687 nt of DNA, taken from the sequence record AB218932.1. The stretch is one strand, 5' to 3'. Below, piece after piece: positions 1-687 of this stretch. The notes beneath the pieces were generated by a model. That model saw nothing but the letters and a program-made list of their open reading frames with translations, did not search any database and was not told the DNA's origin. This DNA comes from a phage. How positions within the stretch are numbered: position 1 is the stretch's first letter; every line of letters begins with the position of its first letter. The position numbers and the translations under genes were made by a program.

Positions 1-53
1 TCGGTCCCGGGGGCGCGCCGTTAGCATTAATCAGGCAACGGCTCTCTAGATAG
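1..53 (+). CDS. mat: Maturation (A / assembly) protein, C-terminal fragment (5' truncated by window edge). Codons in phase with position 3, reading ...GPGGAPLALIRQRLSR, with TAG stop at 51-53.
   Basis: Frame starting at position 3 is open to TAG at 51-53. That leaves a 23-nt gap to the coat ATG at 77, matching the recalled MS2 A-protein end / coat start spacing (reference nt 1311 and 1335). The frame starting at position 2 is also open (TAG at 47-49), so frame choice rests on the recalled MS2 layout, not on sequence alone. Confidence 0.7.
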   Translation, partial: GPGGAPLALIRQRLSR

Positions 54-63
54 AGCCCTCAAC

Positions 64-89
64 CGGAGTTTGAAGCATGGCTTCTAACT
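64..89 (+). promoter_or_regulatory. Coat gene translation initiation region: Shine-Dalgarno-like GGAG at 64-67 and a small hairpin presenting the start codon in its loop (gaagc 72-76 / ATG 77-79 / gcttc 80-84, with possible extension agtt 67-70 / aact 86-89).
   Basis: Directly visible: GGAG nine nt upstream of the ATG; gaagc and gcttc are exact reverse complements flanking the ATG. Consistent with the known coat initiator hairpin of MS2-like phages. Confidence 0.7.
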
Positions 90-469
90 TTACTCAGTTC
101 GTTCTCGTCGACAATGGCGGAACTGGCGACGTGACTGTCGCCCCAAGCAACTTCGCTAACGGGGTCGCTGAATGGATCAGCTCTAACTCGCGTTCACAGG
201 CTTACAAAGTAACCTGTAGCGTTCGTCAGAGCTCTGCGCAGAATCGCAAATACACCATCAAAGTCGAGGTGCCTAAAGTGGCAACCCAGACTGTTGGTGG
301 TGTAGAGCTTCCTGTAGCCGCATGGCGTTCGTACTTAAATATGGAACTAACCATTCCAATTTTCGCTACGAATTCCGACTGCGAGCTTATTGTTAAGGCA
401 ATGCAAGGTCCCCTAAAAGATGGAAACCCGATTCCCTCAGCAATCGCAGCAAACTCCGGCATCTACTAA
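77..469 (+). CDS. cp: Coat (capsid) protein, complete, 130 codons including Met; MS2-type sequence. Ends in tandem stops TAA (467-469) and TAG (470-472).
   Basis: ORF 77..469 translates to MASNFTQFVLVDNGGTGDVTVAPSNFANGVAEWISSNSRSQAYKVTCSVRQSSAQNRKYTIKVEVPKVATQTVGGVELPVAAWRSYLNMELTIPIFATNSDCELIVKAMQG[P]LKDGNPIPSAIAANSGIY. From memory this matches the MS2 coat protein at every position except codon 112 (Pro here, Leu in the sequence I recall). Confidence 0.97.
   Translation: MASNFTQFVLVDNGGTGDVTVAPSNFANGVAEWISSNSRSQAYKVTCSVRQSSAQNRKYTIKVEVPKVATQTVGGVELPVAAWRSYLNMELTIPIFATNSDCELIVKAMQGPLKDGNPIPSAIAANSGIY
169..175 (+). promoter_or_regulatory. Upstream partner of the Min Jou long-range RNA interaction (tgaatgg, inside coat codons 31-33), exactly complementary to 480-486.
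   Basis: tgaatgg at 169-175 is the exact reverse complement of ccattca at 480-486. The positions map to recalled MS2 nt 1427-1433 and 1738-1744, the documented pair that keeps the replicase start closed until ribosomes traverse the early coat gene. Confidence 0.85.
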
Positions 470-647
470 TAGACGCCGGCCATTCAAACATGAGGATTAC
501 CCATGTCGAAGACAACAAAGAAGTTCAACTCTTTATGTATTGATCTTCCTCGCGATCTTTCTCTCGAAATTTACCAATCAATTGCTTCTGTCGCTACTGG
601 AAGCGGTGATCCGCACAGTGACGACTTTACAGCAATTGCTTACTTAA
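420..647 (+). CDS. lys: Lysis protein L, complete, 75 aa. It lies in the +1 frame relative to coat and overlaps the coat 3' end (420-469) and the replicase 5' end (503-647).
   Basis: ORF 420..647 translates to METRFPQQSQQTPASTNRRRPFKHEDYPCRRQQRSSTLYVLIFLAIFLSKFTNQLLLSLLEAVIRTVTTLQQLLT, matching my recollection of MS2 L. It has a basic N-terminal half and a hydrophobic C-terminal half, with the Leu-Ser dipeptide at codons 48-49 (561-566). TAA stop at 645-647. Confidence 0.95.
   Translation: METRFPQQSQQTPASTNRRRPFKHEDYPCRRQQRSSTLYVLIFLAIFLSKFTNQLLLSLLEAVIRTVTTLQQLLT
480..486 (+). promoter_or_regulatory. Downstream partner of the Min Jou long-range interaction (ccattca), immediately 5' of the replicase operator hairpin.
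   Basis: Exact 7-nt reverse complement of 169-175; lies 17-23 nt upstream of the replicase ATG. Confidence 0.85.
488..506 (+). promoter_or_regulatory. Translational operator (TR) hairpin: coat-protein binding site that represses replicase translation and acts as a packaging signal. It contains the replicase Shine-Dalgarno (GAGGA, 492-496) and start codon (503-505).
   Basis: Sequence acatgaggattacccatgt is the canonical 19-nt MS2 operator. Predicted pairs: 488-506, 489-505, 490-504, 491-503, 492-502, bulged A at 493 (the -10 position), 494-501, 495-500, and a 4-nt loop ATTA at 496-499 (-7 to -4). Confidence 0.95.
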
Positions 648-687
648 GGGACGAATTGCTCACAAAGCATCCGACCTTAGGTTCTGG
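503..687 (+). CDS. rep: RNA-directed RNA polymerase (replicase beta subunit), N-terminal fragment of 61 codons; 3' truncated by the window edge.
   Basis: ATG at 503 sits in the operator hairpin; the open frame to the window end translates to MSKTTKKFNSLCIDLPRDLSLEIYQSIASVATGSGDPHSDDFTAIAYLRDELLTKHPTLGSG, matching my recollection of the MS2 replicase N-terminus. It is absent from the supplied ORF track, presumably because it has no stop codon inside the window. Confidence 0.95.
   Translation, partial: MSKTTKKFNSLCIDLPRDLSLEIYQSIASVATGSGDPHSDDFTAIAYLRDELLTKHPTLGS

Follow-up and report, generated by a model that had tools for sequence, protein, structure and literature searches.

Genes and features of the window and its match to MS2

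The window, the 687-nt stretch of DNA analysed here at its full length, contains three overlapping frames on the plus strand: a 130-codon open reading frame at 77–469, a 75-codon open reading frame at 420–647, and a frame that stays open from 503 onwards to the window's last base. They are the coat, lysis (L) and replicase genes of an MS2-type RNA phage. The features of the window are as follows.

1–18, no strand assigned: non-phage linker, primer or polylinker, with SmaI/XmaI site CCCGGG at 6 and AscI site GGCGCGCC at 12
19–53, plus strand: 3' end of the maturation (A) protein gene, stop codon at 51–53; identical to NC_001417.2 1277–1311, where the mat coding sequence ends at 1311
77–469, plus strand: coat gene, 130 codons and stop; PF01819 Levi_coat, E = 4e-67, 224.7 bits (cut-off 25), residues 3–129 on profile positions 1–132; 129/130 residues identical to MS2 coat
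380–448, plus strand: lysis hairpin holding the L ribosome-binding region and start codon (folding, covariation and the published hairpin, PMC7442481)
410–412, plus strand: coat codon 112, CCC (Pro) for CTC (Leu), the changed base 411 being MS2 T1669C (alignment to MS2)
420–647, plus strand: lysis protein L gene, product identical to MS2 L; PF11125 (Phage_MS2_lysis), E = 1.5e-40
471–506, plus strand: intact TR hairpin (the coat-binding operator) at the replicase start; Rfam RF02359, 61.3 bits (gathering score 40), E = 5.7e-14
503–687, plus strand: 5' portion of the replicase gene, cut off by the window's end, with no difference from MS2; PF03431 (RNA_replicase_B), E = 2.9e-07

L starts within the coat gene in the +1 frame and overlaps both the coat gene, which ends at 469, and the replicase gene, which starts at 503. 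Wild-type MS2 (NC_001417.2 / V00642) has the same layout, with the A end, the coat gene, an L gene that overlaps coat as well as replicase, and the operator hairpin. Nucleotide near-identity, the L layout and the TR hairpin all place the window in Emesvirus zinderi / MS2 (group I). Compared with wild-type MS2 the window adds two things: T1669C, which gives coat L112P, and 18 nt of non-phage linker at the 5' end.

Window positions 19–687 were compared base by base with NC_001417.2 1277–1945 (offset +1258), and 668/669 nt are identical. The single mismatch is C at window 411, where NC_001417.2 has T1669. Coat codon 112 (window 410–412) consequently reads CCC (Pro) rather than the CTC (Leu) of MS2, a substitution that is L112P when Met is counted as residue 1 and L111P in mature numbering. 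The original prediction had given MS2 a Leu codon here and named a single T-to-C difference at 411, while allowing that its version of the reference might be at fault. The comparison bears out the difference and excludes a faulty reference as its cause, since MS2 does read CTC. It had also held that this is the sole departure among the coat, L and replicase residues. That is true of the phage-derived part, in which the first 61 replicase residues and the whole L protein are unchanged from MS2, though the linker at 1–18 was overlooked.

Megablast against 50,697 phage records aligned window 19–687 to MS2 1277–1945 at 99.9% identity in V00642, NC_001417.2, EF204940 and MK213795. Laboratory MS2 records on deposit lie approximately 1–4 nt or more from the window (99.9–99.4%). 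With a single difference in 669 nt, the window falls at the bottom of this laboratory range. The count is unremarkable, and only the position of the change and its non-conservative outcome are notable.

The first 18 nt of the window, TCGGTCCCGGGGGCGCGC, are unlike colinear MS2 at 14/18 positions and are joined directly to MS2 1277. Every BLAST alignment to MS2 starts at window 19. The SmaI and AscI sites in this segment mark the source as a cDNA clone, which means that the window was read from cloned cDNA or a PCR product still joined to its linker or primer, and not from viral RNA directly. We take the first 13 bases to resemble the KpnI–SmaI part of the pUC polylinker with one base missing.

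Occurrence of the proline codon and the identity of phage BO1

Public sequences were searched for the proline variant at the protein and nucleotide levels. The exact Pro-variant coat protein was found once (n = 1) in approximately 15 billion sequences, as BAE54368.1 / UniRef100_Q2V0S8, and the sequence of this entry was verified. It is labelled "coat protein [Enterobacteria phage BO1]" and is identical over all 130 residues, including the proline. The exact coat protein of the window is already public as the phage BO1 coat protein. The original prediction had stated that a known isolate carrying proline at this codon would make it ordinary, and formally BO1 is such a case; because the identical protein is on deposit, the Pro variant was already known. 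By comparison at the protein level, it is almost certain that the window is what was deposited for the coat and lysis genes of phage BO1. We believe the BO1 record to be the one described by Nishihara et al. 2006. The literature on BO1 otherwise yielded only a passing mention of its lysis protein.

At the nucleotide level the change was seen nowhere else in the collections searched. The exact 61-mer around the site had no match in 276 phage records. A 31-mer search, in which each 28-base seed spanned the variant base, found C in 0 records while the T control was found in 274. Exact-pattern scans for the C variant gave 0 matches in viral contigs, in genomes (one per species) and in metagenome contigs. 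Among the contigs of the assembly index none encodes the exact Pro-variant protein, and plasmids and complete E. coli genomes had no match to any part of the window. In an alignment of 22 relatives reaching down to 56% identity, coat column 112 is occupied by L, I, V, A or T, never by Pro, and the Gly preceding this column is nearly invariant. The searchable literature, including the passaging studies PMC7442481 and PMC11979748, has no mention of U1669C or T1669C, and all matches there to L111P or L112P concern unrelated proteins.

In one coat-like protein of 108 aa in ENA, P0038, most of the departures from MS2 are A-to-V, S-to-F/L, T-to-I, R-to-C and P-to-L/F. Because these fit a sequence in which nearly every C is read as T, P0038 looks like an assembly of a bisulfite-converted or similarly deaminated MS2 spike-in and would be an artefact rather than a real variant.

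The taxonomic position of BO1 does not agree with this sequence. NCBI taxonomy places BO1 (taxid 12014) in Emesvirus japonicum with GA, JP34, KU1, TH1 and others, whereas Emesvirus zinderi holds MS2, f2, R17, fr, JP501, M12 and ZR, but not BO1. The window does not fit Emesvirus japonicum (GA/BZ13 type, group II). The GA coat protein is 62% identical to the window coat, while the MS2 coat matches it at 129/130 residues, and the GA lysis protein aligns with the window L over 31 residues at 52%. The gene layout also differs: the coat stop (position 1717) is where GA lys begins, whereas in the window L opens 50 nt upstream of the coat stop. Identity of the window to the independent group I isolates JP501, DL1 and DL54 is 92.7–93.1%, and to fr 80.5%. 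These comparisons point to one of two situations: either BO1 has been misplaced taxonomically and is extremely closely related to MS2, or the sequenced material was MS2, through contamination or mislabelling. This matters to anyone using Q2V0S8 / BAE54368.1 as a natural variant. Its proline is without support from any other sequence and scores as assembly-impaired (see below), and the entry is MS2-like even though BO1 is filed with the GA-like phages.

The lysis hairpin and the coat helix at the changed base

The distance from position 411 to the L start (420) is 9 nt, as originally noted, with 411 on the upstream side, and the suggestion that this base falls within RNA structure around the L start was examined by folding. 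An identical hairpin at 380–448 was obtained in sub-ranges of 91 to 669 nt (five context sizes). With the MS2 base, its pairs include U411–A424, C412–G423 and C413–G422, G422 being the G of the L start codon, and the loop occupies 414–421. The U411–A424 pair is U1669–A1682 of MS2, at the top of the lysis hairpin, which confirms that the changed base is part of this structure; the window has a C·A mismatch there. The computed cost of U1669C to the hairpin is a ddG of +1.9 kcal/mol, and the synonymous change T1667C has the same predicted cost.

Natural isolates provide evidence for this hairpin. In JP501, DL1 and DL54, A400G occurs together with U433C, converting an A–U pair to a G–C pair, and U411 and A424 are both unchanged despite 45–48 other differences from MS2. 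The hairpin at 380–448 is supported by natural covariation and corresponds to the published lysis hairpin (PMC7442481). The change U433C on its own is U1691C; in the natural isolates this C comes with the partner change that restores, and indeed strengthens, the pair.

Two other single-base changes in this hairpin have been studied in passaged phage. In Meir et al. 2020 (PMC7442481), A1664G (window 406) took the hairpin from -11.6 to a more stable -15.2 kcal/mol, eliminated expression of the reporter and lowered L, giving a tiny-plaque semi-cheater. According to the follow-up (MBE 2024, PMC11979748), U1691C (window 433) is adaptive at low multiplicity, probably via faster lysis. The energy needed to open the L ribosome-binding region was computed for each sequence.

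Wild type: 11.2 kcal/mol
A1664G: 14.9 kcal/mol, +3.7 relative to wild type, which reproduces the published difference
U1691C: 10.3 kcal/mol, -1.0 relative to wild type
U1669C (window): 9.3 kcal/mol, -1.9 relative to wild type

U1669C is, like the other two, a single-base change in the hairpin that gates L, and its predicted effect is a weakening like that of U1691C. Unlike A1664G, a synonymous change that stabilises the hairpin and came up repeatedly under selection, it is non-synonymous and without a report of selection. The model predicts that U1669C would raise hairpin-gated initiation of L, leading to earlier lysis. Altered Shine-Dalgarno pairing was also considered and was rejected on inspection. 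The change leaves the AAGG at 405–408 as it was, and at 411 no complementarity is gained with either base.

The placement of codon 112 in the C-terminal helical region of the coat, part of the original prediction, agrees with AlphaFold2 models, in which it encodes the last residue of the first C-terminal helix. This helix spans 99–112 in a Leu-bearing, near-wild-type model and 99–113 in the Pro variant, and the second helix spans 118–124 in both. The two models are nearly identical, with mean pLDDT of 86.7 for Pro and 88.1 for Leu. Since AlphaFold2 is insensitive to point changes, the models were used for helix boundaries alone and were given no weight for stability.

The consequence of the substitution for assembly was taken from the MS2 coat protein's apparent fitness landscape, in which assembly was scored by a mutational scan (Hartman et al. 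2018, PMC5895741, Supplementary Data 1). The numbering of the landscape was confirmed from rows G115, P117 and P119. On its scale silent changes score +0.63 +/- 0.3 and nonsense changes have a mean of -2.66. Residue 111 has a mutability index of -0.53. Its scores are Ile +1.10, Val +0.90, Met +0.81, wild-type Leu +0.75, Cys +0.64, Thr -0.08, Pro -0.82 and Ala -0.90, with most polar residues at -4. L111P at -0.82 is in the range that the authors treat as non-assembling. The screen produces false negatives, as two of the 16 variants tested individually, Q50C (-0.87) and T91C (-1.4), still formed some particles; L111P is outside these sixteen. It resembles assembly-impaired coat variants such as L77P in having a proline at a hydrophobic site of low mutability and a negative score, and differs from them in that its score lies in the range where the two false negatives occurred. 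Moreover, a proline directly after the conserved Gly at the C-terminus of a helix is less disruptive than a proline in mid-helix.

Two natural residues at this position behave differently in the landscape than in nature. Relatives carry Ala and Thr here, although in MS2 neither residue scores above zero at 111 (Ala -0.90, Thr -0.08). In the relatives with Ala or Thr at 111, the next residue is usually Phe, as against Leu. This suggests that positions 111 and 112 are context-dependent (epistasis).

Origin of T1669C

The original prediction left the origin of the difference open among a natural polymorphism, a clone-specific mutation, a sequencing error and a faulty version of the reference. Once the last of these is eliminated, the linker at 1–18 puts a singleton, either clone-specific or from sequencing, ahead of the other explanations. 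We consider it likely that T1669C is a singleton of the clone or of the read, arising from an RT/PCR error, a base-calling slip or a minority genome. This reading is favoured because of the linker, the uniqueness of the variant, the non-conservative replacement at a site conserved in both residue class and RNA pair, the negative assembly score, and the fact that laboratory MS2 records already vary among themselves by one to several bases over this region. The window would then be a cloned RT-PCR or cDNA fragment of an MS2-type RNA phage in which a vector or primer linker was retained, and T1669C may have been introduced by misincorporation by reverse transcriptase or during PCR. A U-to-C transition is a typical polymerase error. 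Alternatively, GGTCTCC may have been read as GGTCCCC through a base-calling slip in a C-rich run, or the clone may have picked up a single minority genome from the mutant cloud of the phage. By any of these routes T1669C would be neither a fixed nor a designed feature.

If the clone were expressed, L111P at the last residue of helix A is predicted to impair capsid assembly. At the RNA level, loss of the U1669–A1682 pair would leave the hairpin approximately 1.9 kcal/mol weaker and L translation would rise. Most probably, the change is a clone or sequencing singleton that would probably be deleterious if expressed. Several observations count against the singleton reading: the assembly screen has false negatives, Ala and Thr are natural at this column, the proline is at a helix end, and the Pro and Leu models are alike. 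As a single-base departure from MS2 in a single clone, and one that is already public, T1669C matters little for biology. Selection against lysis toxicity during cloning was entertained as a cause and dismissed, since the predicted effect on L expression is a rise and not a fall.

Could T1669C instead be a genuine fixed polymorphism of the BO1 stock, with a Pro coat that assembles well enough and a weaker hairpin that is tolerated? The BO1 deposit does carry this coat sequence, but the remainder of the window is identical to the Fiers MS2, unlike the independent isolates JP501, DL1 and DL54 with their 92.7–93.1% identity. The column accepts several residues among relatives, yet Pro is absent from these relatives and from the 274 MS2 records. 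L111P scores in the non-assembling range, a result softened by the false negatives that the screen gave at similar scores and by the position of the residue at a helix end rather than in mid-helix. At the RNA level, the paired bases U411/A424 are invariant in the divergent isolates. Taken together, these observations make a fixed polymorphism unlikely.

A second alternative is that the clone captured a cheater-type variant from a phage population, one whose coat would be defective and complemented by wild-type coat from co-infecting phage, and whose L translation would be de-repressed. Neighbours in the same hairpin, A1664G and U1691C, were selected with strong phenotypes (PMC7442481 and PMC11979748), but position 1669 is without mention in these passaging studies or elsewhere in the searchable literature, and the variant has been seen once. 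The opening energy of U1669C (-1.9) falls on the side of U1691C (-1.0), opposite A1664G (+3.7); an earlier-lysing genome with a defective coat has no evident advantage in co-infection. We therefore regard a cheater origin as very improbable. Since neighbouring changes have large measured effects, U1669C offers a cheap extra test point for the relationship between hairpin stability and lysis timing.

Least probable of all, to the point of being nearly discounted, is the deliberate removal of a BsaI site (GGTCTC to GGTCCC) for type IIS cloning. T1669C does destroy the only BsaI site in MS2 1277–1945 (window 407–412, MS2 1665–1670), a hexamer that a random substitution would hit with a chance of approximately 6/669 (0.9%), and the 5' end of the window carries engineered restriction sites. 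A designer, however, would have had at least six synonymous single-base options (GGT to GGC, GGA or GGG; CTC to CTT, CTA or CTG). One of them, T1667C, has an equal predicted hairpin cost, so RNA structure gives no reason to accept a Leu-to-Pro change. The window is not a type IIS-domesticated part, as BsaI was lost through Leu-to-Pro while the BbsI site at window 508 was kept, and the deposit names the protein as the coat of a natural phage, not as a synthetic construct. The accession series of BAE54368.1 is presumably older than Golden Gate cloning. The loss of the BsaI site is probably a coincidence. T1669C also creates PpuMI/AvaII sites.
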